Of a DNA stretch of 32,435 nt, positions 1,958-28,979 are shown in pieces. Position numbers and translations under genes: made by a program. The stretch comes from a virus (taxonomy: Duplodnaviria > Heunggongvirae > Uroviricota > Caudoviricetes), in IMG/VR virus record IMGVR_UViG_2690316131_000024, one strand, 5' to 3'. Numbering within the stretch: position 1 is the first letter of the stretch; every line of letters starts with the position of its first letter. Below the pieces are notes generated by a model. The model searched no databases, had not been told where the DNA came from, and worked only from the letters and a program-made list of their open reading frames with translations.

Positions 1958-4405
1958 TTAACCGTCATGCATCATGCTGGCACGGGCGCGCGCACGTTTA
2001 TCCCGCTCGTATTTTTCGAGCGCATCCTGTAACTGGCGGTCGAGCTGTGTCCCCGGCGCAGTACCACCCGTCAGGCTGATGTGATATTCGTTTTTACTCT
2101 GGTCTACATAAGAGCGGCCAGCCGGTGCCGTGACCGGCTGATAAGCCTGATAACCTGCATAAGAGCTGGTCGCCGGAATATAACCACCGCTGCCATACGT
2201 GGCGGCTTGAGTTCTGGCGGCGGTCTGGTCAAGTGTGTCTGACTCTTTGTTGATAACACCGAGTTTTTCCAGTACCCAGTCAATACCACTGCGCAGTTTA
2301 TTGAACGCATTAAGCGGCAGCATCAGCGCGTCAGCCAGTGCCTGCCCGAACATGACGCCCGTGTCACGGCAACGGTTCAGGGTGTCCTGGGTGGCTTTGA
2401 CCGGGGCAATCAGGTTTTTAAACCACTGCCACGCGGCCTGTAACTTTTCACCCAGCCAGTCAAACACCGGTTTAAGTGGCGTGAACAGTTCCCCCACCGG
2501 CGCAAATGCCGCTTTCAGCCCTTCAACCACACCGCCAAAGAATGCGCTGACAGGCTCCCAGTATTTACGGATAAGCAACGCCCCGGCGACAATGGCGGCC
2601 ACCACGGCCACAACCGGCCAGCTAATCGCCCCGATGGCGGTTATAACAGCACTGCCAACCGTCGTGAAGATTGCCCCCATTGCGCCTGCTGCCGCGATGA
2701 TGGCATTGATGCCAGTGATAACCGGCCAGGCTACAAGACCAATTGCACCGATGATGCCAGTCAGCGCCAGCGCGCCACCGGCAATGAGGCCAATGGTTGA
2801 CGCCAGTGATTTGTTTTTCTGTATCCAGCCGTCGAGTTTTAACACATACTTTGTGGCCGTCTGTGTGAGCTTACGCAGTGCGCCTTCCTGCTGGTCAAAC
2901 AGGTCAGTCCCCACCGCCTCATAAGCGGACTGAAACTCCTTAAAGTCACCGCCGAGGTTGTCCTGCATGATATTTACCAGCTCTGCGGTCTTCCCGTCTG
3001 AGGCTTTAAACGCAGCGGTCAGTTTGTCCAGCTTTCCGGTTGACGCGGCAGTCATCAGCACGGCGGCGGCTGAGCTGGCCTCCTCCCCGAAAATAGTTTT
3101 CATGTATTCAGCCTGCTGGGCAGTACCGAGCCGGTTTTTCTCAAAACTGGCCTGCATTTCTTTCAGAATGGTAAATATTGGCCGGGTGTTTCCCTTGCTG
3201 TCTGAGGTTTTCACTCCAAGCTCTTTGAGTGCATCCCATGCTTTTCCCGTCGGTGCCTGCAGGCGGCTTAACACGGCACGGCTTCCCGTCCCCGCCATTG
3301 AGCCTGTGATTTTTGCATCATGCAGCGCCCCGACCATTGCGGCGGTTTCTTCAATGCTGACACCGGCATTTTTTGCCACAGGTGCGGCATAGGTCAGCGC
3401 ATCGCTCATGCCGTCAAAATCGGCGGCGGTTTTGTTCATCGTCATGGAGAGAACATCCCCGATATGAGCGACCTTATCGTTTGAAAGCTGAAAGGCGGAT
3501 TTCATCCCCATCAGCAGGGCGGCGTTTTCTTCCATCGTGCGGCGGTTCGCCAGCGCCATATTCAGCGTGACCGGCGTTGCCGCCTGAATGGCATCAACAT
3601 CCCCACCCGCTTTCGCGATGATTATCTGTGCACCGGCCGCATCATCCGCCGAGGCGGCGGTATTGTCGCCGAGCTGCCGCGCCTGTTTGCGGAGTGCGGT
3701 CATTTCGGCGGAGTCTTTTGCCACTCCGAGCACGGCCTGCAATTCTGAGTTTTTCTGCGCAAACTCATAACCGGGCATCAGCAGCTTAACTCCGGCCATC
3801 GTTCCCGCCGCCGCAATCCCCACACCGGCAGCGCCCACCGAGGCCATATTTCCGGCCAGTTCCTTTCCGGCCTGATAACGCTGTTTGACTGCGTTAAGTT
3901 TTGCCTGTTGCGCACTGACACGCGCCAGCGCGTCGCGCTGACGGTTAAGCTGTGCGGTGGTTTCACTGATACGGTTTTTCAGTCCCTGCTCATCATGTGC
4001 AAGATTGCGGGTATTAATTCCCACAGCGGCCAGTTCCCGCTGCTGGCGTTTAACGGAATCCGTCAGGCGGTTATATTTCGCCTGTAAGTCCTCCGCCGCA
4101 CGCTTTGCGGATTCCAGCACTTTCGCCTGAGCACGTGTCGGACGTTCGGTGTTTTTAAACTGTGTGGCAAGGGCTTCGGCCTCCTGCCGTGCCTTTTCAA
4201 GTGCATGACCAGTCACGGCGAGCTGTGCACTGGTCTTGCGAAATCCCTCAATACGGGATGCCTGACCGTTCAGCTCGCGCAGTGATTTTTGTGTTTCCCG
4301 GATATCCGCCGACAGCGATTTGCTCGCTGTGCGGATGGATTTAAACGGGCGGGATGCCTGGTCAACAGCCCTGAGCAATACCTGTAATTTTACATTGTTA
4401 CTCAT
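1958..4405 (-). CDS. T: Tail tape measure protein, 815 aa
   Basis: 815-aa Ala/Gly-rich protein with coiled-coil N-terminus and hydrophobic glycine-zipper segment, directly downstream of E/E'. Confidence 0.9.
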   Translation of the reverse strand: MSNNVKLQVLLRAVDQASRPFKSIRTASKSLSADIRETQKSLRELNGQASRIEGFRKTSAQLAVTGHALEKARQEAEALATQFKNTERPTRAQAKVLESAKRAAEDLQAKYNRLTDSVKRQQRELAAVGINTRNLAHDEQGLKNRISETTAQLNRQRDALARVSAQQAKLNAVKQRYQAGKELAGNMASVGAAGVGIAAAGTMAGVKLLMPGYEFAQKNSELQAVLGVAKDSAEMTALRKQARQLGDNTAASADDAAGAQIIIAKAGGDVDAIQAATPVTLNMALANRRTMEENAALLMGMKSAFQLSNDKVAHIGDVLSMTMNKTAADFDGMSDALTYAAPVAKNAGVSIEETAAMVGALHDAKITGSMAGTGSRAVLSRLQAPTGKAWDALKELGVKTSDSKGNTRPIFTILKEMQASFEKNRLGTAQQAEYMKTIFGEEASSAAAVLMTAASTGKLDKLTAAFKASDGKTAELVNIMQDNLGGDFKEFQSAYEAVGTDLFDQQEGALRKLTQTATKYVLKLDGWIQKNKSLASTIGLIAGGALALTGIIGAIGLVAWPVITGINAIIAAAGAMGAIFTTVGSAVITAIGAISWPVVAVVAAIVAGALLIRKYWEPVSAFFGGVVEGLKAAFAPVGELFTPLKPVFDWLGEKLQAAWQWFKNLIAPVKATQDTLNRCRDTGVMFGQALADALMLPLNAFNKLRSGIDWVLEKLGVINKESDTLDQTAARTQAATYGSGGYIPATSSYAGYQAYQPVTAPAGRSYVDQSKNEYHISLTGGTAPGTQLDRQLQDALEKYERDKRARARASMMHDG

Positions 4406-5412: not shown

Positions 5413-6603
5413 TTAATTGCTGTTAACCGAGGTGACCAGATTTGCCAGGTATTTATCGGTAATACGCTGGCGCAGGGTCAGGTTTTCAAGAGGAGGCACC
5501 GGTGTATAGTCGTAGTCGATATACAGTTTTCCGGCCTTGAGGGTTTCCGCATCGTTGGATTCTTCGCTGAACCAGCAGGTCGCATCCACGATATAGCCGT
5601 TTGTTTTCAGCTCACGGAATTTGGCATTGATGCCGTCAACGATGTCGCGAATCAGCGTTGCGGTGATGGGCTTGTCCACCGCCCACATGTGCGCCTCAGC
5701 CATCGTGTCGGCCAGCACCTGCGCGGTGCGGGTGTAGTTTTCAAAGAGGAACAGCGGGTCATCAGAGCAGGTACGGTTACCCCAGAAGCGGAAACCGTCG
5801 CGGCGAATCAGCGTTGTGACGCCTGACTCGTTAAGCAGGTCAGCATCGGTGCCGGACTCCTGCAAATCCCAGAATACAGATGCGCTGATGCCGGTAACAC
5901 CGTTCACCCCGACGTTGGACAGCGTTTTATGCCAGCCCTGCTCCTGGTCGATTTTGGCACGCAGACCCAGCGCACGGGCGGTGGCATACGCGGTGGCGGT
6001 GGTACTGGTGACCGTATCCCATGCGAGGAAATCCGGCCAGATGACCATCAGCTCACGCTGGCTGAAATTCTGGCGGTAGGCTTTCACCTCGGAAATGGTC
6101 TTACAGCCCCATGCGCTGATATACCCGAAAGCGCGCAGCTTCTGACAGACTGATGCCAGTGCAACCGCCACCTCTTTGGTGTCCAGTCCCGGCACACCGA
6201 GAATACGCGGTTTAACACCGGTTACCGACTCCGCCGCCAGCAGGGCTTTTAGTCCGGTGTACTGACCGTTTTCGTCGGTGGTGCCGATGATATTGGAAAC
6301 GGTCTGCGCGAGTTTCGTTTCCTCGTCATCACCGGTGCCGTCTTCCACGCGCACGACAACGGTGACCGGTTTTGACTGGTCAGCGATGGCCTGCAACGAT
6401 GCCGCCAGCGTGCCTTTTTTACCGGCCTTTGCAATTGCGCTCTGCACATTGGTAATCAGCACAGGTTTATTGAGGGGGAAGGTTTCCGCATCCGCATCGC
6501 TGGCCGTGCAGACCATGCCGACAATGGCAGTGGATACGGTGGAAATGACGCGGGTGCCGTCGTTAATCTCCAGCACCTGCACGCCGTGATGATAGTCACT
6601 CAT
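5413..6603 (-). CDS. FI: Contractile tail sheath protein FI, 396 aa
   Basis: 396-aa ORF, same length and position as P2 FI; first gene of the FI-FII-E-T-U-D operon. Confidence 0.9.
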   Translation of the reverse strand: MSDYHHGVQVLEINDGTRVISTVSTAIVGMVCTASDADAETFPLNKPVLITNVQSAIAKAGKKGTLAASLQAIADQSKPVTVVVRVEDGTGDDEETKLAQTVSNIIGTTDENGQYTGLKALLAAESVTGVKPRILGVPGLDTKEVAVALASVCQKLRAFGYISAWGCKTISEVKAYRQNFSQRELMVIWPDFLAWDTVTSTTATAYATARALGLRAKIDQEQGWHKTLSNVGVNGVTGISASVFWDLQESGTDADLLNESGVTTLIRRDGFRFWGNRTCSDDPLFLFENYTRTAQVLADTMAEAHMWAVDKPITATLIRDIVDGINAKFRELKTNGYIVDATCWFSEESNDAETLKAGKLYIDYDYTPVPPLENLTLRQRITDKYLANLVTSVNSN

Positions 6604-6662
6604 CCGTTTAACTCCGTGGTTAATGGGTGAGTGGTATTTTCAGTTGTGCCGGAGATGTCAGG

Positions 6663-20090: not shown

Positions 20091-20263
20091 TGTCAGGAGT
20101 CCTGAATAGTGATTAGAGGAGTCACATGTCGGCATCAGTTTCCCGACGATGCGCATCCTCCGCCATCAGTCCCGGATGGCTTATCACTGACACAACAGTA
20201 CCTTAGCGAATCGCGGGGCGCGACTCAGTAGCCTTGCCGTGTATTCATCACGGCGAGGTATTC

Positions 20264-22036
20264 ATGACCATCACCACAGACACCACTCTTTTACACGACC
20301 CGCGTCGTCAGGCGGCGCTGCTGTACTGGCAGGGGTTTTCCGTGCCGCAGATTGCCGCCATGTTGCAGATGAAACGCCCGACGGTGCAGAGCTGGAAACA
20401 GCGCGACGGCTGGGACAGCGTTGCCCCCATCAGCCGTGTCGAAATGAGTCTGGAAGCGCGGCTGACCCAGCTCATCATCAAACCGCAGAAAACCGGCGGT
20501 GACTTCAAGGAAATTGACCTGCTCGGACGCCAGATTGAACGACTGGCACGGGTCAACCGTTACAGTCAGACCGGCAACGAGGCAGACCTTAATCCGAACG
20601 TCGCTAACCGCAACAAAGGCGGGCGTCGCAAACCGAAAAAGAATTTTTTCAGTGACGAGGCCATCGAAAAGCTGGAGCAGATTTTCTTTGAGCAGTCTTT
20701 CGAATATCAGTTGCACTGGTATCGCGCCGGGCTTGAGCACCGCATCCGCGATATCCTGAAATCCCGCCAGATTGGCGCGACGTTTTATTTTTCCCGCGAG
20801 GCGCTGCTGCGCGCCCTGAAAACCGGTCATAACCAGATTTTTCTGTCGGCCAGTAAAACGCAGGCGTATGTGTTCCGCGAATACATCATCGCCTTTGCCC
20901 GGCTGGTTGACGTTGACCTGACCGGTGACCCAATCGTCCTGGGCAATAACGGCGCAAAACTGATTTTTCTCGGCACCAACTCCAACACCGCGCAGAGCCA
21001 TAACGGCGACCTGTACGTCGACGAGATTTTCTGGATCCCGAATTTTCAGGTGCTCCGTAAGGTGGCATCAGGTATGGCCTCACAGAGTCACCTGCGCTCG
21101 ACCTATTTCTCCACCCCGTCCACGCTGGCGCACGACGCCTACCCGTTCTGGTCCGGTGAACTGTTTAACCGGGGACGCGCCAGCGCCGCCGAACGCGTGG
21201 AAATCGACGTCAGTCATAACGCCCTTGCCGGTGGGCTTCTCTGTGCGGACGGCCAGTGGCGGCAGATTGTCACCATTGAGGACGCCCTGAAAGGCGGCTG
21301 CACATTGTTCGACATTGAGCAGCTTAAACGCGAAAACAGCGCCGACGATTTTAAAAACCTGTTCATGTGTGAATTTGTTGACGACAAGGCATCGGTGTTC
21401 CCGTTCGAGGAGCTGCAACGCTGCATGGTCGACACGCTGGAAGAATGGGAAGACTATGCGCCGTTTGCCGCAAATCCGTTCGGCTCACGTCCGGTATGGA
21501 TTGGTTACGACCCGTCACACCGTGGCGACAGCGCCGGATGCGTGGTACTGGCACCGCCGGTGGTGGCCGGTGGCAAATTCAGAATACTTGAGCGTCACCA
21601 GTGGAAAGGCATGGACTTTGCCACCCAGGCGGAATCCATCCGCAAACTCACCGAAAAATACAACGTCGAATACATCGGAATTGATGCCACCGGCCTCGGT
21701 GTCGGCGTGTTCCAGCTCGTGCGCTCGTTCTATCCCGCCGCGCGCGATATCCGCTACACGCCGGAAATGAAAACCGCAATGGTGCTCAAGGCAAAAGACG
21801 TTATCCGCCGTGGCTGTCTGGAATATGACGTCAGCGCCACCGACATCACCAGCTCGTTTATGGCTATCCGCAAGACCATGACCAGCAGCGGACGCAGTGC
21901 CACCTATGAGGCCAGCCGCAGCGAGGAAGCCAGCCACGCCGACCTCGCCTGGGCGACCATGCACGCCCTGTTAAATGAGCCACTCACCGCCGGTATCAGC
22001 ACCCCGCTGACATCCACCATTCTGGAGTTTTACTGA
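20264..22036 (+). CDS. P: Terminase ATPase (large) subunit P, ~590 aa
   Basis: Start taken at MTITTDTTLL, preceded by GAGGT 7 nt upstream; gives the P2 gpP length; stop overlaps the Q start (ATGA). Confidence 0.88.
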   Translation: MTITTDTTLLHDPRRQAALLYWQGFSVPQIAAMLQMKRPTVQSWKQRDGWDSVAPISRVEMSLEARLTQLIIKPQKTGGDFKEIDLLGRQIERLARVNRYSQTGNEADLNPNVANRNKGGRRKPKKNFFSDEAIEKLEQIFFEQSFEYQLHWYRAGLEHRIRDILKSRQIGATFYFSREALLRALKTGHNQIFLSASKTQAYVFREYIIAFARLVDVDLTGDPIVLGNNGAKLIFLGTNSNTAQSHNGDLYVDEIFWIPNFQVLRKVASGMASQSHLRSTYFSTPSTLAHDAYPFWSGELFNRGRASAAERVEIDVSHNALAGGLLCADGQWRQIVTIEDALKGGCTLFDIEQLKRENSADDFKNLFMCEFVDDKASVFPFEELQRCMVDTLEEWEDYAPFAANPFGSRPVWIGYDPSHRGDSAGCVVLAPPVVAGGKFRILERHQWKGMDFATQAESIRKLTEKYNVEYIGIDATGLGVGVFQLVRSFYPAARDIRYTPEMKTAMVLKAKDVIRRGCLEYDVSATDITSSFMAIRKTMTSSGRSATYEASRSEEASHADLAWATMHALLNEPLTAGISTPLTSTILEFY

Positions 22037-23070
22037 TGAGCAAGAAAAAAGGGAAAACACCGCAACCTGCGGCAAAAAAAATGACCGCCAGCGCCCCGAA
22101 AATGGAAGCATTCACCTTTGGCGAGCCGGTGCCGGTACTCGACCGCCGTGACATTCTGGATTACGTCGAGTGCATCAGTAACGGCAGATGGTATGAGCCA
22201 CCAGTCAGCTTTACCGGTCTGGCAAAAAGCCTGCGTGCTGCCGTGCATCACAGCTCACCGATTTACGTCAAACGTAATATTCTGGCTTCAACGTTTATCC
22301 CGCACCCGTGGCTTTCCCAGCAGGATTTCAGCCGCTTTGTGCTGGATTTTCTGGTGTTCGGTAATGCGTTTCTGGAAAAGCGTTACAGCCCCACCGGTAA
22401 GGTCATCAGACTGGAAACCTCACCGGCAAAATATACCCGCCGTGGCGTGGAGGAGGATGTTTACTGGTGGGTGCCGTCCTTCAACGAGCCGACAGCCTTC
22501 GCGCCCGGTTCCGTGTTTCACCTGCTGGAGCCCGATATTAATCAGGAGCTGTACGGCCTGCCGGAATATCTCAGCGCCCTTAACTCTGCCTGGCTGAATG
22601 AGTCGGCCACGCTGTTCCGCCGCAAGTATTACGAAAACGGCGCACATGCCGGATACATCATGTACGTTACCGATGCCGTGCAGGATCGCAACGATATCGA
22701 AATGCTTCGCGAAAACATGGTTAAGTCGAAAGGCCGCAATAACTTTAAAAATCTGTTTCTCTATGCCCCGCAGGGGAAAGCCGACGGCATTAAAATTATC
22801 CCCCTCAGTGAAGTGGCAACGAAGGACGATTTTTTTAATATCAAAAAAGCCAGCGCCGCTGACCTGCTGGACGCGCACCGCATCCCCTTTCAGTTGATGG
22901 GCGGCAAGCCGGAGAACGTCGGGTCGCTGGGTGATATTGAGAAAGTGGCAAAGGTCTTTGTCCGCAATGAGCTTATCCCGCTACAGGACAGGATCCGCGA
23001 GATAAACGGCTGGCTCGGTCAGGAGGTCATCCGCTTTAAAAACTACTCACTGGACACTGACAACGGCTGA
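22036..23070 (+). CDS. Q: Portal (capsid) protein Q, 344 aa
   Basis: 344-aa ORF, same length and position as P2 gpQ, last gene before cos. Confidence 0.9.
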   Translation: MSKKKGKTPQPAAKKMTASAPKMEAFTFGEPVPVLDRRDILDYVECISNGRWYEPPVSFTGLAKSLRAAVHHSSPIYVKRNILASTFIPHPWLSQQDFSRFVLDFLVFGNAFLEKRYSPTGKVIRLETSPAKYTRRGVEEDVYWWVPSFNEPTAFAPGSVFHLLEPDINQELYGLPEYLSALNSAWLNESATLFRRKYYENGAHAGYIMYVTDAVQDRNDIEMLRENMVKSKGRNNFKNLFLYAPQGKADGIKIIPLSEVATKDDFFNIKKASAADLLDAHRIPFQLMGGKPENVGSLGDIEKVAKVFVRNELIPLQDRIREINGWLGQEVIRFKNYSLDTDNG

Positions 23071-23075
23071 ACATC

Positions 23076-23097
23076 GCCGCCTGCGGGCGGCTTTTTT
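23076..23097 (+). terminator. Rho-independent terminator of the P-Q operon
   Basis: gccgcc-tgcg-ggcggc stem-loop followed directly by TTTTTT, 5 nt after the Q stop. Confidence 0.7.
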
Positions 23098-23239
23098 ACA
23101 CCCCGTCATCACGCCCTCACACGCTCACCACCGCACAAAACACCCCGCAGACACACCAACGCCTCAACGGGCAGACTAAGCGCCTTCACGACGCGCTCAG
23201 ACGCTGAAAAAATAAAATCAGCACCACCGCCAGCGCGCA

Positions 23240-23258
23240 GTGCTTTCCCCGCCTCGCC
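23240..23258 (-). other. cos: cos site (19-nt cohesive-end sequence, P2 type)
   Basis: gtgctttccccgcctcgcc is the reverse complement of GGCGAGGCGGGGAAAGCAC, which I recall as the P2 cohesive end; located just beyond Q as in P2. Confidence 0.8.
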
Positions 23259-23501
23259 CGCCCGCTTCATGGGGCGGTTTTAATGCAGTTGCACAGCCAT
23301 GTCAAAGCCATGTCAACACTAGCAGTATGTAAAAAGAGCAGATATAAGAAACAAATGCAGTTTCATGCAAAAAGCGACACACATCATGTCATGAAACAAA
23401 GCCGCTAATGAACACTTGCTTTGGTTATCTTAAGGTTTTATCTTCAGCCTAACCTATTGATTGCATGAAACTAAAATGAACTCTCAGCAAGGAACGACTA
23501 T

Positions 23502-25460
23502 ATGTCAGATTTCGAAATTAAAATTGATTTGAATGTGCTAAATCACCTAGGGATGAGTCTCTATTCCAATACTCCCGCGGTACTAACTGAGATTATATCA
23601 AATGCATGGGATGCAGATGCTCAAAATGTAGAAATTACACTTGATGTTGAGAAAGGAGAGGTCATCATTAAAGATGATGGTCATGGCATGTCTAAAGATG
23701 ACATTATTAATAAGTTCCTAAAAGTCGGTTATGCTCGCAGGGAACATGGAAGAGCCAAAAGCGATCATCTAAAACGTCAAGTTATGGGCAGAAAAGGTAT
23801 TGGTAAGCTTGCCATGTTTTCACTTGCCAATAAAATCCAAGTTTATTCGTACAAAAAGGGGGAACAGCCTCAGGCCTTTGAGGTAGATGTCAAAGATTTA
23901 CAGCAAAGTATCAAAGAATCAAAAAACTATATTGCTGACTCCCTTGAAATACCCGAAAATCTTGCTTACGGCACTACAATTAAATTATTTGAACTAAAAA
24001 AAGCCATTGATAGGACTCAAACTTACCTCAGAAAGCGAATAGCTCGTCGATTTAGCATTATTGGCCCCAACCATAACTTTACAGTTAAAATTAATGGGAC
24101 CGATATTACACCGGCAGATAGAGATTTCCTTTCAGATCTCGAGTTCATTTGGGAATTTGGCGAATCCGACCCTGAAAGGATAAAATCCTGCACAAACATC
24201 ACACAAAAAAACATATTACCAAATACTATTACCTTTGAAGGAAAAGATGTAAAAGTTAGTGGGTACATTGGCAGTGTAGTTAAGCCATCACAGTTAAAGA
24301 AAGACCCTGAAATATCTAACAACAGCATTACTGTAATCTCTCACGGACGTGTTTTTGAGGAGGACATATTATTAGAATTTGGAAGTGCTAAAGTATTCAC
24401 CAATTATCTGGTCGGTGAAATAGTCGCCGATTTTCTAGATGATAACGAAAAGCCTGATATGGCAACATCTTCTCGTCAAAAACTACAACAGAATGATCCA
24501 AGATACCCTGTACTTAAAGGTTTTCTGGAAAGAACGCTACAACTAATCGATAAAGATTGGGATAAATGGAGACGCGAAAAAGGAGTAAATGAAGTTAAAA
24601 GCAATACTCCAATAGTAAGTGAATGGCTGAATTCTCTCAAAAAACATGAGAGAGAAAGTGCCGAAAAGTTAATTGGACGAGTAAACACATTCCGTTTTTC
24701 TGGTAATGAGGAAGAACAAAAAGCAGCAAGAAAAACCGTATTAAAAAATACGGTATTAGCCTTTGAAAGACTTAGAATTCAAGACAACCTTGATGCATTA
24801 GATAAAATAAGCAACCTTCAATCAGAAAATTTTAAAGATGTATTTGCATCTGTCAATGACATTGAAGCAAGCATGTTTTATGAAATTACTTCGCAACGCC
24901 TTAAAGTAATTGAAAAATTCCAAAAAATAACTGATGAAAATCAGCTTGAAAGAGCTGTACAAATGTATTTATATGATCATTTATGGTTATTGGATCCTTC
25001 ATGGGAAAGAGTCACAGGCACATCTGTTATGGAGCAAACATTGACCAAGGAACTAAAACAGATAAACCCTGATGCTGCTAGCGGTGCTCGTATTGATATC
25101 GCTTTCAAAACCGTTTCTGGCAAGCATGTAATTATTGAGATGAAACGACCTAAAGTGCACCCAGATATAATGAACCTAGTCGCACAAGGTAATAAATATG
25201 TACAGGCAACGACACAATGGTTCTCCAATAACCCTAAAAATTGCCCAGGTGGAAATATACCGCATATAGAAGTAATATTCCTGGTTGGCTCTGGATATTT
25301 ACAAGAGAACCAACACTTTATAAATATGCAATTACTTTCTATCAATGGAAAAATATTGACATATAATGACCTAATCGTGCAATCAAAACAAGCCTATGCT
25401 GAATATCAAGACAAAAAGAATGATGCAGCTAGAATTATGAAAATAGTTGAGGGAATCTAA
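23502..25460 (+). CDS. GHKL-family ATPase (MutL/MORC/Hsp90-like Bergerat fold) with C-terminal PD-(D/E)xK-like nuclease motif, 652 aa; candidate defence/restriction protein
   Basis: N-box EIISNAWDA, G1 box IKDDGHGM, G2 box GRKGIGKLAMFS and YGTTIKLFEL in canonical order within the first ~170 aa. Near the C-terminus ARIDIAFKTVSGKHVIIEMKRPK fits D-x(n)-E-x-K. AT-rich gene with an AAGGAA RBS 7 nt before the ATG. Family placement is from motifs only. Confidence 0.7.
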   Translation: MSDFEIKIDLNVLNHLGMSLYSNTPAVLTEIISNAWDADAQNVEITLDVEKGEVIIKDDGHGMSKDDIINKFLKVGYARREHGRAKSDHLKRQVMGRKGIGKLAMFSLANKIQVYSYKKGEQPQAFEVDVKDLQQSIKESKNYIADSLEIPENLAYGTTIKLFELKKAIDRTQTYLRKRIARRFSIIGPNHNFTVKINGTDITPADRDFLSDLEFIWEFGESDPERIKSCTNITQKNILPNTITFEGKDVKVSGYIGSVVKPSQLKKDPEISNNSITVISHGRVFEEDILLEFGSAKVFTNYLVGEIVADFLDDNEKPDMATSSRQKLQQNDPRYPVLKGFLERTLQLIDKDWDKWRREKGVNEVKSNTPIVSEWLNSLKKHERESAEKLIGRVNTFRFSGNEEEQKAARKTVLKNTVLAFERLRIQDNLDALDKISNLQSENFKDVFASVNDIEASMFYEITSQRLKVIEKFQKITDENQLERAVQMYLYDHLWLLDPSWERVTGTSVMEQTLTKELKQINPDAASGARIDIAFKTVSGKHVIIEMKRPKVHPDIMNLVAQGNKYVQATTQWFSNNPKNCPGGNIPHIEVIFLVGSGYLQENQHFINMQLLSINGKILTYNDLIVQSKQAYAEYQDKKNDAARIMKIVEGI

Positions 25461-25466
25461 TTATAC

Positions 25467-25490
25467 CCCCCCTGTTTTTTGACAGGGGGG
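25467..25490. terminator. GC-rich hairpin between the convergent ATPase and methyltransferase genes (candidate bidirectional terminator)
   Basis: cccccctg-ttttttga-cagggggg, a perfect 8-bp stem between the two stop codons (25460 and 25503). Confidence 0.55.
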
Positions 25491-25502
25491 ATGACATAAG
25501 TT

Positions 25503-26552
25503 TTAAATATTCATTTCTGACAAATGTTTTAAAATAGTTTCACCTACGACCTCACCAAGCCTAACAGGAACAGCATTACCTATTAAACGCGCAACTGTTC
25601 TCATTTCAATTTTTACATCATCAGGCCAAAACTCATACTTTTCTGGGAATGACTGTAATAGCGCAGCCTCTCTTAAACTTAATGCTCTATTTTGGACAGG
25701 GTGCCCAAAGCGTCCATTCCCATATCCAATACATTGAGTTGTAATTGTCGGTCCAAGTTTATCCCAACACATTCTCCCATATACAGCAGTATATGTAGAA
25801 CCACTTTCTTTTGTATGACATTTTGCTCTTAGCTCTTCTGGCCAATCACGCCATGTTCCACCAGGTTTTGATGCCATTATTCTTTTTATATTAATATCAG
25901 ATAATGATGCAGAGCGATGTAGTTTATCTCCAGCGTGAACAGCACCGGCACTAATTTCAGGAAGATTACCGATTATATCTCGCACCGTTTTATAATCATT
26001 CTTCTCATGAGTTGGTGGAATTATTTCTATTTCTCCATATTTTGATGCCAATAACACTAATCTTGAACGACTTTGTGCCATTCCATAGTCTGGACAAAAC
26101 ACCACCCCATACCAAACAAAATAGCCATCATTTTTAAGAGACTTAATGAAGTCCTTAAAAACCTTATGATTCACCACTCGGGGAACGTTTTCCATTGTAA
26201 TAATATCTGGCTTTGCAAATTTAATTTGCTTAGCAAAGCTATAAAGCAAAGACCATCTTTTATCTTTTGAACGTACTACCCCTAATTTAGCACTATTGGT
26301 ATAGCTTGAAAAAGGTTGGCATGGGGCACAACCAGCCAAAACTCGAACCTTCGCTCCTTCGAAATATTTAACTAATTCGCCGTCCTCAATGTCTGTAACA
26401 CTTTTCTGGACAAAGAGTGATTTATTATTTGTCTCATAGGCAAATCGACAGGCTGCATCTATATCATAACCTGCAACTACATTAAGCCCCGACTTCTGAA
26501 GACCGTGAGTCAAGCCACCCGCGCCACAGAATAAATCAACAACCTTAATCAA
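25503..26552 (-). CDS. DNA (cytosine-5)-methyltransferase, ~349 aa
   Basis: All core m5C-MTase motifs in order: DLFCGAGG (I), GCAPCQPFS (IV), ENV (VI), QSRSRLV (VIII), GNAVPV (X). Start proposed at TTG 26550..26552 preceded by AGAAGGAGG (6-nt spacer); the 383-aa ORF-track version extends into the promoter region. Confidence 0.85.
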   Translation of the reverse strand: MIKVVDLFCGAGGLTHGLQKSGLNVVAGYDIDAACRFAYETNNKSLFVQKSVTDIEDGELVKYFEGAKVRVLAGCAPCQPFSSYTNSAKLGVVRSKDKRWSLLYSFAKQIKFAKPDIITMENVPRVVNHKVFKDFIKSLKNDGYFVWYGVVFCPDYGMAQSRSRLVLLASKYGEIEIIPPTHEKNDYKTVRDIIGNLPEISAGAVHAGDKLHRSASLSDINIKRIMASKPGGTWRDWPEELRAKCHTKESGSTYTAVYGRMCWDKLGPTITTQCIGYGNGRFGHPVQNRALSLREAALLQSFPEKYEFWPDDVKIEMRTVARLIGNAVPVRLGEVVGETILKHLSEMNI

Positions 26553-26572
26553 GATAAACCTCCTTCTAATGC

Positions 26573-26649
26573 TGTGGGGATTGTAGCATTGTTCTTTCTC
26601 ATCATCGATGTTTACTTGATGCTTGATTTGTGAATACAAAATCAAGCAT
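26573..26649 (-). promoter_or_regulatory. Candidate promoter and operator-like palindrome upstream of the methyltransferase
   Basis: Minus-strand extended -10 TGcTACAAT (+ coords 26580..26588) about 28 nt upstream of the TTG start. An 11-bp inverted repeat atgcttgattt-N9-aaatcaagcat at 26619..26649 abuts a TTGACA hexamer on the minus strand. Confidence 0.4.
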
Positions 26650-26663
26650 GTCAATCATTATTG

Positions 26664-28979
26664 TTAGTTTGTTTCAAATCCCGCCCAACCATCAGAAATC
26701 GGATATGAAAACGTTTTCCCATCATAATTTACGGTCGCGCCACGCGCCAGCGCCTCAAGCTCCCATCGCTGCGGCCTGATACCGTTCTGAGCAAGGTCAA
26801 CGCGGATACGGGTAATTTGCATTCTTTCCGACCGGGTCAGTCTGGCCGATGGTGCAATTTCATGTGGTTTTAACGGGCTTCCGTTTCTTTGCTGACGACT
26901 TGGCGTTCTCCGACCGTGTTTTAATGCACCTCTGAGCGCCCTCACGACCTCCGGGTCACTCCATTCGATAACACCGTCATCAACCAGATTAAGCACTGCT
27001 GCGGCGTGCTCAGAAGGTGTGGGAGCCGGTAACGAAGTATCACCACCGGTGAGTTTTCCACAGTTATTGACAGGACTCCGAGGCGCGGCGATGCCGCTTT
27101 TTAAAGTCAAAGGCTCAACGACCGGAACTTTCGGCACAATGCGCCAGTCCGTCGTTCTGGTGATATGAATATGACGCGCGCCGAGATGCGGCGCGTAAAT
27201 GCCGACCACTCTCTCGACTTCTTCCTCGTACTCGTTAACGTCATCCGACAGACTACGGGCGACCCTGACAGTCTGACAATCGCGCGGGACATTTGCCCCG
27301 CCCTGCGCGCTGATATACAGCGCAAAATCACCACTGTCTGCGGCGGCGCGTGCAGCCTCGACGCGCTCGTCAAACTCATCAGCAATGCTGACGCCGCGAG
27401 GCAATTTGCGTAGTTCACGGTAAGCCCCCATTGTCGGCAGGCCAACCGTTTTAAATTGCGGAATGCGCCACGTTGACGCCCATGCGGTAACAGCCGCTGC
27501 AGTGTCTTTCAGCGGCCTGCCGGTGTCGTTATCGAGCTGACCATCCAGTGCATAGCCGTCGATGTTTTTTGAAATGTATTTCGCGATATATCCCGCAGCA
27601 CCGCCCCGGTTAAGGTGTTTTGCCTGAAAACGGTTTCGCGCGGCTCCTCTTTCGTCGCCATCCTCTTTGAGCGCATAGCGACGCATGATTTCGATAATCT
27701 GGTTACGCTGGCGTGGATGACAAAAAAGCATCATATGCCAGTGCGGCGTTCCGTCGTGGTGTGGCTCGACGACTCGCAAACCGTAGACCTGTAAATCATT
27801 ATCCTTGAATGCCGTGCGCATCAGGCTCCAGATACGGCAGAGATAACGCTGCGCATCCTTTGGATTAAATGCCTCATCGTTCCAGCCGTGATTAAGCTGA
27901 ACGGTTTTACTTTCGCCTTTTCCGACCTGACGTGTCGGGTGATACTTTGACGGCGCGGTCAGCGTGATAAACATCCCCACATCACCCTCTGCGGCGGCGT
28001 AACGCTCAATACCGGCAATGGTGTTCATCAGCTCCATCCGGCGAATTTCAGGATTAGAAATACTGCCCATCACCTTACTGATAAGGTCGATGCGCTCGCC
28101 GGTTTCCCTGTTTTCAAGGTCACACGATTTAAGAAATTCCAGATTTGCCTGGCGGCGCGCACGCACATCACGAATGGCGTGTTTACTGGCATAAGGAGAA
28201 CGGTCTTTATTGACCTCCCCGACAGCTATCAGTAACGCCTCATGCCAGCGCATACGCTGGCCTTTAAGCTGATGAGTCCACCACTCATCGTTAAACAGGC
28301 GGGCAATGGCAGAATATGCCTGCCTCGTGGTCATCTGTCCTTTACGGTATTTTTTCCAGTAGAGCGGGGAAATATTGAAAGCACGTGCAGCGCCAGCAAC
28401 ATGACCATACAGGTGAGCCTGCGCCTCATCCGTAAACAGCGATTCTTTTTCACCATGCGCATCAACCCATGCATCGCAGAGTTCCTCATACATCATGAAA
28501 AGCTGCGATGAGATACGGGCGGCAAACTTTTTCAGCTCCTTGTCATTCATTCCCGGCAGGCGCGCATAGTGGTCACGCTCTGCCAGAAACAGCAACGACG
28601 CGTCGGTGTTCATTTCATGGCGCTGATTCACACGCTCAATGCGCGGCCATAAACGACGCTGAAAAGTAGATGTGAGGAAATAAAACCCGTGCACCGGGCT
28701 TTTATTGCGCCGGATGTAGTCATAGCGTGAAGTAAACAGCGAGCGCAAAAAATAAGGCAGGCGGTTAATCGTGGATAAAACACCTTGCACCTGACGCATC
28801 TCGTCACGTGTAAGAGGTCTTTCGCGCCCGACAGCCTCGCGTGGCGCGTTCCATGCATAAGCACCGGTAAACGCCTTACCGGTGCCTGCGGTAAATGCTG
28901 ACGGAGGGACAAAACGCCCGGAGGCTTTAACGGCCATATGAGCCAAAAGCCTCTGAACAACGCTTGCTGAGTTGCTCAA
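26664..28979 (-). CDS. A: Replication initiation protein A (rolling-circle nicking endonuclease), 771 aa
   Basis: 771-aa ORF (P2 gpA is slightly shorter; true start may be the internal Met at MAVKASGRF) with a central HxH and paired-Tyr region (GAAGYIAKYISKNIDGY), in the P2 gene A position. Confidence 0.88.
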   Translation of the reverse strand: MSNSASVVQRLLAHMAVKASGRFVPPSAFTAGTGKAFTGAYAWNAPREAVGRERPLTRDEMRQVQGVLSTINRLPYFLRSLFTSRYDYIRRNKSPVHGFYFLTSTFQRRLWPRIERVNQRHEMNTDASLLFLAERDHYARLPGMNDKELKKFAARISSQLFMMYEELCDAWVDAHGEKESLFTDEAQAHLYGHVAGAARAFNISPLYWKKYRKGQMTTRQAYSAIARLFNDEWWTHQLKGQRMRWHEALLIAVGEVNKDRSPYASKHAIRDVRARRQANLEFLKSCDLENRETGERIDLISKVMGSISNPEIRRMELMNTIAGIERYAAAEGDVGMFITLTAPSKYHPTRQVGKGESKTVQLNHGWNDEAFNPKDAQRYLCRIWSLMRTAFKDNDLQVYGLRVVEPHHDGTPHWHMMLFCHPRQRNQIIEIMRRYALKEDGDERGAARNRFQAKHLNRGGAAGYIAKYISKNIDGYALDGQLDNDTGRPLKDTAAAVTAWASTWRIPQFKTVGLPTMGAYRELRKLPRGVSIADEFDERVEAARAAADSGDFALYISAQGGANVPRDCQTVRVARSLSDDVNEYEEEVERVVGIYAPHLGARHIHITRTTDWRIVPKVPVVEPLTLKSGIAAPRSPVNNCGKLTGGDTSLPAPTPSEHAAAVLNLVDDGVIEWSDPEVVRALRGALKHGRRTPSRQQRNGSPLKPHEIAPSARLTRSERMQITRIRVDLAQNGIRPQRWELEALARGATVNYDGKTFSYPISDGWAGFETN

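Follow-up and report, generated by a model that had tools for sequence, protein, structure and literature searches.

A convergent m5C methyltransferase and restriction endonuclease pair of the HgiDII/BbrUII family in the cargo slot of a P2-like prophage, with a predicted methylase promoter and a TTG start

The methylase gene, its restriction partner and their place in the prophage

The window, which is the whole stretch of 32,435 nucleotides analysed here (IMG/VR record IMGVR_UViG_2690316131_000024), carries a module of two convergent genes, a methylase gene named M and a restriction gene named R. M occupies positions 25503–26552 of the minus strand, stop codon included, and encodes an m5C methyltransferase of 349 amino acids that is M.HgiDII-like by family. 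In a Pfam profile search, PF00145 covers M over model positions 1–323 of 324 (E = 9e-56), and TIGR00675 (dcm) matches at 130 bits (cut-off 100.65). Motif I (DLFCGAGG, residues D6–G13), motif IV (GCAPCQPFS, with the catalytic C78), motif VI (ENV, E121–V123), motif VIII (QxRxR; Q160, R162 and R164), motif IX (RE; R294 and E295) and motif X (GNAVP, G325–P329) follow in the canonical order, and their residues are invariant in a 28-sequence family alignment. The variable target-recognition region of methyltransferases of this type lies between motifs VIII and IX. Judged by its motifs and profile matches, M is a complete C5-cytosine DNA methyltransferase; a preliminary description of this DNA had called the gene complete with all diagnostic motifs in order, and the full-length PF00145 match and the invariant motifs bear this out. 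Motif I begins at residue 6, which leaves M without an N-terminal DNA-binding extension. Family members are 340–360 amino acids long, and longer annotations are gene-caller extensions into the promoter. The identical 1050-nt coding sequence is annotated by PGAP (WP_000598783.1) and in GenBank PV340563.

R lies on the plus strand at 23502–25460 and encodes a restriction endonuclease of 652 amino acids, composed of an N-terminal GHKL ATPase and a C-terminal PD-(D/E)xK nuclease. The NCBIfam equivalog model NF050001, 'BbrUII/HgiDII family restriction enzyme', matches residues 4–651 with 751.4 bits (cut-off 550), and R is also matched by PF13589 and by PADLOC REase_II (305 bits). The GHKL motifs and the residues D532, E546 and K548 are conserved. 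RefSeq names the protein BbrUII/HgiDII family restriction enzyme, and the record of phage PhiR44_1 names it ParaMORC3. A candidate R promoter (TTGCTT, 17 nt, TATCTT) lies at 23416–23444 on the plus strand; its CTTG..TT and TTATCTTC blocks are kept in six of eight variants, and the other two have TTGACA and TAGTTT there. Between the stops of M and R, a GC-rich hairpin at 25467–25490 (approximately −21 to −23 kcal/mol) is presumed to be a bidirectional terminator. A hairpin is found at this place in all eight variants examined, with unrelated sequences. The length of the C/G run in the hairpin varies among E. coli copies.

On either side of the module lie genes and sites of the P2 backbone (gpA, portal, terminase and cos). 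The P2 replication gene A (gpA) is found at 26664–28979 of the minus strand (PF05840 Phage_GPA, E = 3e-124). Its stop codon (26664–26666) precedes the M start by 111 nt, both genes being on the minus strand, and backbone homology to other P2 phages ends at approximately 26672. The opposite edge, on the R side, is marked by gtgctttccccgcctcgcc at 23240–23258, which we take to be the P2 cohesive end (cos) and which five other P2-like phages share. The GC content of the cassette is 36.8%, against 51.8% for the window. The gpA–gpQ slot is described as a P2 defence hotspot (PMC9122126, PMC13586616), and the M–R module is cargo in this known cos-proximal hotspot of a P2-like E. coli prophage. The cassette consists of the M and R reading frames without a controller gene; the small reading frames at 23109–23270 and 23283–23408 have no significant Pfam or HTH match. 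A search of Rfam over 23000–27200 at E ≤ 1 returned nothing except one chance-level match. Terminal inverted repeats flanking the cassette, proposed from a match made by eye, were rejected as not significant (window p = 0.35, local alignment against shuffles).

Conservation was read from 14 diverged lineages including the window, all of them P2-like prophages, which come from several genera and whose M proteins are 66–100% identical. A convergent GHKL gene of 652–657 amino acids directly follows M in every one of these lineages, and R identity covaries with M identity. Because R belongs to a restriction-enzyme family and is co-inherited with M in 14 of 14 lineages, the two genes are read as a restriction–modification (R-M) pair. 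On this family assignment and linkage, M is the modification half of a Type II R-M pair of the HgiDII/BbrUII family. Its target is probably GTCGAC, modified as m5C, by analogy with HgiDII. The specificity of M could differ from GTCGAC, since methyltransferases approximately 55% identical to M have other partners, which among the matches listed are HEPN, SNF2 helicase, Vsr and GmrSD_N. The window contains 3 GTCGAC sites where 11 are expected, a count that is uninformative because most palindromic hexamers are also depleted in this phage. An inference of the target from site avoidance was discarded on the same ground, as GTCGAC and ATCGAT are rare, but so are most palindromic hexamers.

The predicted promoter and the start codon of the methylase gene

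The preliminary description had named an extended −10, TGcTACAAT, upstream of M, and this element is found on the minus strand at 26588–26580. It reads TG[C/T]TACAAT in 13 of the 14 lineages and TGaTAGACT in the remaining one. The TGn directly abuts a −10 hexamer whose second base is A and whose sixth is T, in agreement with a sigma-70 extended −10. The −35 of this predicted promoter, named PM, is TCGATG (26608–26603, minus strand), placed 17 nt from the −10 within the 8-bp palindrome CATCGATG (26603–26610). Across the lineages, the −35 is TCGA[T/A]G, in which TCGA is invariant (14/14), and the 17-nt spacing is constant. It agrees with TTGACA at only 3 of 6 bases, and a simple sigma-70 consensus scan calls no promoter in the intergenic region between gene A and M. 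The transcription start is predicted near 26573. Among 2.9 million viral contigs, the spaced PM pattern matches only 12, all of which bear the methylase. In lineage L092, a box AAGTARRCATMGATGA occurs upstream of both promoters (p ~0.013), an observation that does not hold in the window.

Translation of M is predicted to start at a TTG codon (26550–26552, minus strand). This codon is TTG in 13 lineages, GTG in one and ATG in none, and three lineages (L093, L094 and L095) have no alternative upstream in-frame start. As read from the sequence, a Shine–Dalgarno element, AAGGAGG (26559–26565, minus strand), lies 6 nt ahead of the TTG, and a GGAGG or GGGAGG core is kept upstream of M in related lineages. 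The strong ribosome-binding site and the non-ATG start that had been proposed earlier are thus conserved across the 14 lineages.

All 14 diverged lineages keep the −35, the 17-nt spacer and the TGn −10, together with the Shine–Dalgarno element and a TTG or GTG start. Neutral divergence among the same lineages is such that only 3.4% of four-fold degenerate sites and 11% of third codon positions are invariant. Because the upstream features are conserved despite saturated neutral sites, an independent promoter and a TTG start are well supported; the lineages are related by descent, so that part of the conservation could be historical, though the neutral sites are saturated. Comparison of these sequences supports well that M has its own promoter, PM, separate from gene A, whose activity is predicted. 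The suggestion that M is transcribed independently of gene A is in line with the PM architecture found in all 14 lineages. Promoter function alone does not fully explain why TCGA never varies at a −35 that departs from the consensus.

The TTGACA hexamer, the 11-bp inverted repeat and alternative readings

A TTGACA hexamer at 26649–26654 on the minus strand abuts a perfect inverted repeat and is probably not a working −35. It lies 63 nt upstream of TACAAT, and because of this distance the two cannot form one promoter. At a spacing of 17 nt from TTGACA, the downstream hexamer is ACAAAT, without the key −11 A, and relatives read TTGAAA, TTAACT and ATAACA at the equivalent positions.

The inverted repeat, ATGCTTGATTT-N9-AAATCAAGCAT, extends over 26619–26649, from −76 to −46 relative to the predicted transcription start. 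Its two 11-nt arms (26619–26629 and 26639–26649) are 100% complementary and 9 nt apart. The preliminary description had reported an 11-bp inverted repeat beside TTGACA upstream of M, and both are indeed there. The 32-kb window contains no other perfect inverted repeat of at least 11 nt with a loop of up to 20 nt, and 0.18 per window are expected from first-order Markov simulations. The chance of such a repeat in a 111-nt intergenic stretch of the composition of the cassette is ~0.0005. The palindrome is absent from the 13 other lineages. Inverted repeats of at least 7 bp occur in 4 of the 14 lineages, with unrelated sequences, against ~11% expected by chance. The left arm is part of flank DNA that pro147-type phages also have, and the junction falls inside the palindrome; phages that share this flank carry a different cargo, a reverse transcriptase. 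As RNA, the palindrome folds at −13 kcal/mol (z −3.5) into a hairpin whose stability was not reached by any of 200 shuffles. Because its stem has 3 G–C pairs of 11 and the sequence that follows, CAAGUAAACAUCG, has no U tract, it is not a canonical intrinsic terminator, and a terminator scan does not call it. Comparison by eye with the sites of CRP, FNR and IHF, with Fur, and with the P2 Ogr pattern TGT-N12-ACA gave no fit; its TTGAT...ATCAA halves are 13 nt apart, as against 4 nt in the FNR site. From these comparisons, the palindrome is judged to be a lineage-specific feature of the junction between gene A and the cargo, outside the conserved control apparatus, and at most it would form an RNA hairpin where the gene A message ends. 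A function specific to this lineage is conceivable, since chance occurrence at this place is only ~5e-4. Striking statistics of this type need not mean a conserved control element.

The palindrome had earlier been proposed as an operator for autoregulation or for a controller protein, a claim that is not supported, as the repeat is absent in 13 lineages, lies upstream of the promoter core and is accompanied by no HTH or C gene. It is very doubtful that the methylase itself, or a controller protein as in C-protein or SsoII/EcoRII-type systems, uses it as an operator, although such a perfect repeat is far beyond chance in the 111-nt region, ends 10 nt before the PM −35, and sits where a promoter-distal C-protein site can activate (PMC2632904). 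L084 also has another palindrome, of 8+8, whose centre lies at almost the same distance. The cassette, however, lacks an HTH or C gene, its small reading frames have no meaningful Pfam match, and the methyltransferase lacks an N-terminal extension. The repeat is missing in 13 of 14 lineages, the few other repeats are unrelated in sequence (4 of 14 against 11% by chance), the left arm is flank DNA common to phages with reverse-transcriptase cargo, and no half-site copy lies upstream of R. Moreover, C-boxes precede C-R operons, not M genes (PMC2632904). It also seems unlikely, if less strikingly so, that the palindrome acts in the early transcript of P2, where it would form a hairpin at the 3' terminus of the gene A mRNA and either stabilise this mRNA or partly terminate or pause transcription, thereby setting the read-through into M. 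The repeat starts 15 nt past the gene A stop on the transcribed strand, its fold is unmatched by the shuffles, and in the lineage of the window, as in few others, M comes straight after gpA without small genes between. Against this stand the weak stem without a U tract, which the terminator scan passes over, and the case of L142, where M comes right after gpA, yet without such a hairpin; nor do other P2-like phages have a common hairpin after the gene A stop.

The rest of the account faces three further alternatives. That M has no functional promoter of its own and depends for its expression wholly on gene A read-through, with the conserved block serving another purpose, is hardly credible. 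M does lie on the gene A strand only 111 nt downstream, with no canonical terminator between, and the PM −35 is poor, with its three matching bases. However, most related lineages have small genes (DinI-like and others) before M, yet keep the same −35, 17-nt spacer and TGn −10. A prophage R-M system needs M in the lysogen while the early promoter is repressed, and a good −35 is unnecessary for TGn extended −10 promoters. It is likewise improbable that M is not half of a classical R-M system but an orphan or epigenetic methylase, or part of a DISARM-type (DrmMII) or Druantia (DruM) system, with R as a stand-alone Shedu-like effector. The best PADLOC match of M is DrmMII (302 bits), narrowly above MTase_II (295 bits), both being m5C methyltransferase models. 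ParaMORC3 proteins can defend alone, as does VcSduA of Shedu type I-D (PMC12137116), one R homologue matches SduA_C (E = 4e-6), and the ~55%-identity methyltransferases have many different partners among the matches listed. Membership in DISARM or Druantia was nevertheless rejected, as the module has two genes only, without DrmA, DrmB or DrmC and without DruA–E, and the DrmMII and DruM matches reflect generic m5C methyltransferase similarity. R also passes an equivalog model named for two experimentally characterised restriction enzymes, and the strict convergent co-inheritance of M and R throughout the 14 lineages is as expected of a toxin/antidote-like R-M pair. A third and similarly improbable proposal is a joint one. 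In it, TCGA in CATCGATG is a near-cognate site at which the methylase or nuclease binds, or the methylase methylates, the promoter of M itself, giving M:R feedback without a controller or HTH; separately, the 11-bp palindrome is a newly born hairpin or operator that couples the methylase to the P2 early operon. The 8-bp palindrome CATCGATG is found in most lineages and shares its four central bases with the presumed target GTCGAC. Methylation feedback through a cognate site was dismissed, as GTCGAC is absent from the whole cassette, including the promoter. Upstream of 78 distant members of the family, GTCGAC, TCGA and ATCGAT show no enrichment.

Known systems and the proposed working of the module

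The HgiDII system of Herpetosiphon and the BbrUII/BbrII system of Bifidobacterium breve UCC2003 likewise consist of an m5C methyltransferase and a restriction enzyme of ~650 amino acids with an N-terminal GHKL domain. This domain is described for R.HgiDII (PMC2441816), and M.HgiDII and M.BbrUII are characterised m5C methyltransferases, the target of HgiDII being GTCGAC (PMC5867850). In contrast to these systems, the pair described here resides in a P2-like enterobacterial prophage, and its genes are convergent, each with what appears to be its own promoter; the likeness is one of family, not of a direct alignment of M. R has the same GHKL and PD-(D/E)xK architecture as the paraMORC3 protein VcSduA of Shedu type I-D (PMC2292703, PMC12137116). 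VcSduA works alone without a methylase, whereas R always occurs with an m5C methylase in the 14 lineages and belongs to a family named after site-specific restriction enzymes.

The module occupies the same slot between gene A and the portal gene, by cos, as other cargo of the P2 hotspot, such as old and tin in P2 (Rousset et al. 2022, PMC9122126; PMC13586616). That cargo is likewise low in GC, self-contained, equipped with native promoters and swapped between otherwise similar phages. The present module differs in being a classical R-M pair rather than a system of the abortive-infection type, and in that no fewer than 14 diverged P2-like lineages, drawn from several genera, have kept the same M–R pair in the slot. 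EcoT38I is reported as an R-M system on a P2 prophage and EcoO109I as one on a P4-like element (Kita et al., cited in PMC2853133 and PMC9122126); like the present pair, both are of Type II and are moved by elements of the P2/P4 family. These two include a C protein (C.EcoT38I is listed in PMC2632904), whereas the M–R cassette is without one. C-protein R-M systems such as PvuII, AhdI and Esp1396I (PMC2632904) likewise have a palindrome just upstream of a −35. Here, however, no Xre-type C gene is present. The palindrome precedes M rather than a C-R operon, occurs once where those systems have a double C-box, and is not kept along with the genes. M resembles the self-regulating m5C methyltransferases (SsoII, EcoRII and MspI type) and those with methylation-sensitive promoters (CfrBI type) in being an m5C methylase whose level has to be kept in balance with a nuclease. 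It differs in that M has no N-terminal HTH arm and neither its promoter nor the cassette contains GTCGAC.

In the proposed working of the module, PM would act as an independent sigma-70 promoter and transcribe M from near 26573. The transcript would have a leader of ~20 nt that carries the strong Shine–Dalgarno element and a deliberately weak TTG start, and it would end at the GC-rich hairpin common with the convergent R, which would have its own weaker-looking promoter. The P2 early promoter is repressed in the lysogen, and for this reason PM would be what supplies the methylase constitutively there. The methylase would place m5C on the DNA of host and prophage, probably at GTCGAC. DNA so marked would be shielded from R, the endonuclease with the GHKL ATPase and PD-(D/E)xK domains, whose action would restrict incoming DNA that lacks the mark. 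There is no canonical terminator between gene A and M, and read-through from the early operon at infection or induction would probably add M transcripts and oppose the convergent R. Such a combination would favour methylation before restriction. What the sequence comparisons show is the identity of the gene, its pairing with R, the conservation of PM, of the ribosome-binding site and of the start codon, and the lack of conservation of the palindrome; we infer that PM is active, which sequence is the target, that read-through occurs, and how the expression of the two genes is timed. Taken as a whole, the reading of M as part of a two-gene R-M cargo of the HgiDII/BbrUII family, with its own conserved promoter and TTG start and with a lineage-specific palindrome, is considered likely to be correct.

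The M–R pair is of an ordinary and known kind, and little changes if the account is right: a prophage defence hotspot already known gains one further annotated R-M pair. The account does give a concrete map of promoter, ribosome-binding site and start codon for an HgiDII-family system. A solved structure of an ATPase-coupled nuclease of the HgiDII family was not found. The constant non-ATG start and the non-consensus −35 across diverged phages hint at a tightly tuned methylase level. The pair also stays in the P2 cargo slot across several genera, though this slot normally turns over quickly.

Methylase, nuclease, and their prophage locus

M, the methylase gene, occupies 25503–26552 on the minus strand (349 aa, 1050 nt) according to the ORF list and a minus-strand reading, and its frame ends at 25503. 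The conserved N-terminus, MIKVVDLFCGAGG, starts at a TTG codon (26552–26550, minus strand), and a Shine–Dalgarno sequence, AAGGAGG (26565–26559, minus strand), lies 6 nt 5' of it. The product covers the whole Pfam model PF00145 (E 9e-56) and also matches TIGR00675. Motifs I, IV (catalytic Cys78), VI, VIII, IX, and X are invariant and in order in a 28-sequence family alignment, which bears out the preliminary description of a complete m5C methylase. The same 1050-nt coding sequence with a TTG start is annotated by PGAP (WP_000598783.1) and in the GenBank entry for Escherichia phage PhiR44_1.

Convergent to M is R (23502–25460), which encodes a 652-aa protein with an N-terminal GHKL ATPase domain (PF13589). 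R matches PADLOC Type II REase models and scores 751 bits against the NCBIfam equivalog "BbrUII/HgiDII family restriction enzyme" (cut-off 550). Alignment of 14 homologues shows invariant GHKL motifs, with D532, E546, and K548 nearly invariant; one homologue matches the Shedu nuclease domain. The architecture, a GHKL ATPase with a PD-(D/E)xK nuclease joined to it, is that of paraMORC3 and resembles Shedu type I-D. R.HgiDII has a GHKL N-terminal domain (PMC2441816), and the family of R is equivalent to paraMORC3, whose C-terminal domain has a restriction-endonuclease fold (PMC2292703). A search for a solved structure of HgiDII-family restriction enzymes found none. Experiments have characterised M.HgiDII as an m5C methylase that targets GTCGAC, and M.BbrUII belongs to the m5C enzymes as well (PMC5867850). 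The equivalog match and the m5C activity of these two methylases point to R, the neighbouring nuclease of the preliminary description, as the cognate restriction enzyme of M. In all 13 further lineages, a convergent GHKL gene of 652–657 aa comes directly after M. By sequence and comparison, M is complete as an m5C methylase, and its linkage to this nuclease of the HgiDII family is strict.

By family membership, the target of M is likely GTCGAC. Methylases about 55% identical in other bacteria (L003–L082) have HEPN (MAE_28990-like), GHKL, SNF2-helicase, Vsr, or GmrSD_N genes as partners, which calls for caution in transferring this specificity. One conserved m5C methylase serves several types of nuclease partner, and these pairings agree with the MORC/paraMORC gene-neighbourhood network (PMC2292703). 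The backbone outside 23290–26672 lacks AAGCTT, AGCGCT, GGCGCC, CCATGG, GAGCTC, and other palindromic hexamers, some expected 5–17 times. This is general restriction-site avoidance, so site counts are useless for guessing the target of M and R.

The prophage is P2-like. The locus is flanked by terminase (20234–22036) and portal (22036–23070) genes and by replication gene A (26664–28979, PF05840), and 23240–23258 is presumably the P2 cohesive-end sequence. Conserved ATGCA-containing repeats follow it within 23240–23400 (TTTTAATGCA..TGCA; ATGCA-N3-TTCATGCA); they are common to all P2-like loci examined and are presumably part of the packaging site. Inside gene A, GCGCCTCGGAGTCCTGTCAA (~27060–27090) resembles the site in the P2 origin that the A protein nicks. 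Other P2-like phages align only at the flanks (~23200–23300 and ~26672–26800), with unrelated genes between, and the insert has a GC content of 36.8% vs 51.8% for the window. The locus is the cos-proximal gpA–gpQ defence hotspot known in P2-like phages (PMC9122126; PMC13586616). The entire cassette was found at ≥99.9% identity in 30 of 5,426 complete E. coli genomes, and in all 13 further lineages, likewise P2-like prophages, M is located in the interval from gpA to the portal gene. In related lineages, M is often preceded by small genes, for example a DinI homologue: L094 and L138–L141 have a gene resembling DinI, together with one or two small ORFs, between gene A and M, whereas the window lineage and L142 have neither.

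Promoter and start codon of the methylase

An extended -10 element, TGcTACAAT, is read at 26588–26580 on the minus strand. The region was compared with 13 further methylase lineages (66–90% amino-acid identity), taken from assembled read archives, viral contigs, and genomes, including Pantoea, Enterobacter, Rosenbergiella, and others. In eight of these, only 3.4% of four-fold degenerate sites in invariant codons and 11% of third positions are unchanged, indicating that neutral sites are saturated. Against this background, the -35 element is TCGA[T/A]G with TCGA invariant in 14/14 lineages, the 17-nt spacer is constant, the -10 is TG[C/T]TACAAT in 13 lineages and TGaTAGACT in the remaining one, and the GGAGG core is kept. 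The start codon is TTG in 13 of the 14, GTG in one, and never ATG; L093, L094, and L095 offer no alternative in-frame start codon from the nearest upstream stop to motif I. Among 2.9 million viral contigs, the promoter pattern with correct spacing matched only 12 methylase loci. Since these elements are kept despite saturation, they give strong phylogenetic-footprint support to the independent extended -10 promoter and the non-ATG start that had been proposed. Transcription is predicted to start near 26573, which makes the leader some 20 nt long.

The TTGACA noted earlier beside the inverted repeat is present, but it lies 63 nt from the -10 hexamer and therefore cannot be its -35; no usable hexamer occurs 17 nt downstream of it. 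The TCGA core is a poor match to TTGACA, yet invariant, and its four bases are also those at the centre of the presumed GTCGAC target. The -35 lies within an 8-bp palindrome, CATCGATG (26603–26610), and ATCGAT is confined in the window to the cassette (24546 and 26604).

Inverted repeat upstream of the methylase

The repeat has perfect 11-nt arms (26619–26629 and 26639–26649) with a 9-nt spacer and spans -76 to -46 with respect to the predicted transcription start. It was correctly described, as were the coding sequence, ribosome-binding site, TTG, and -10. It is the only repeat of its sort in the 32-kb window, and simulations of an intergenic stretch of the same size and composition give a chance of about 0.0005.

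The earlier reading as an operator for autoregulation or a controller protein is not supported. The palindrome occurs in none of the 13 other lineages; inverted repeats of at least 7 bp upstream of the -35 are found in 4/14 lineages, with unrelated sequences, where shuffles expect 10.8%. The ORF list and a small-ORF check revealed no HTH or controller ORF in the cassette, the family alignment no N-terminal DNA-binding arm on the methylase, and the cassette no GTCGAC. The upstream regions of 78 distant family members show no enrichment of target-like sites, and C-boxes belong 5' of C–R operons (PMC2632904).

The last gene A codons through the left arm and loop (AATGATTGA[C/A]ATG[C/G]TTGATTTTG...) are common to pro147-type P2 phages, which carry reverse-transcriptase cargo, and similarity to the window stops at the right arm. 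About 45 nt past the gene A end (26632–26672), including the left arm, are common to L099 (pro147) and L105–L117. The repeat therefore straddles the junction of a backbone-variant flank and the cargo, and it is best seen, from these alignments, as a lineage-specific junction feature; that a template switch produced the right arm is speculation. A minor role as an RNA hairpin ending the gene A message is possible. As RNA, the repeat folds at -13 kcal/mol (z -3.5), but its stem has only three G-C pairs, no U tract follows, and a terminator scan did not call it. Its statistical improbability is the single point that the junction reading leaves without explanation.

Expression of the restriction–modification pair

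A candidate R promoter, TTGCTT-17-TATCTT (23416–23444, plus strand), is conserved among variants. It appears weaker than that of M, and its -35 position is TTGACA in L094 and L095. In one sub-lineage, a box, AAGTARRCAT[C/A]GATGA, lies upstream of both promoters (L092, ~3390–3470 and ~6600–6640, local alignment p ~0.013; also L083 and L093); such a box was not seen upstream of both promoters in the window lineage. Between the convergent stop codons lies a GC-rich hairpin (25467–25490). Every variant has a strong hairpin there with unrelated sequence, the signature of a presumed bidirectional terminator; among E. coli copies, its C and G runs differ by one base (C5–6, G6–7). M and R thus each have conserved promoter-like elements, with a hairpin in common, as judged from these comparisons.

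M and R are an ordinary, database-annotated restriction–modification pair in a known prophage hotspot, in which the promoter and TTG start of M are well supported and the operator is not. In the lysogen, with the P2 early promoter off, the promoter of M would provide constant modification, and the strong Shine–Dalgarno sequence, weak start codon, and fixed non-consensus -35 point to tuning of the level of expression. Gene A and M are on the same strand without a canonical terminator between them. When the phage infects or is induced, gene A read-through may add M transcripts and collide with convergent R transcription, which would favour modification ahead of restriction.
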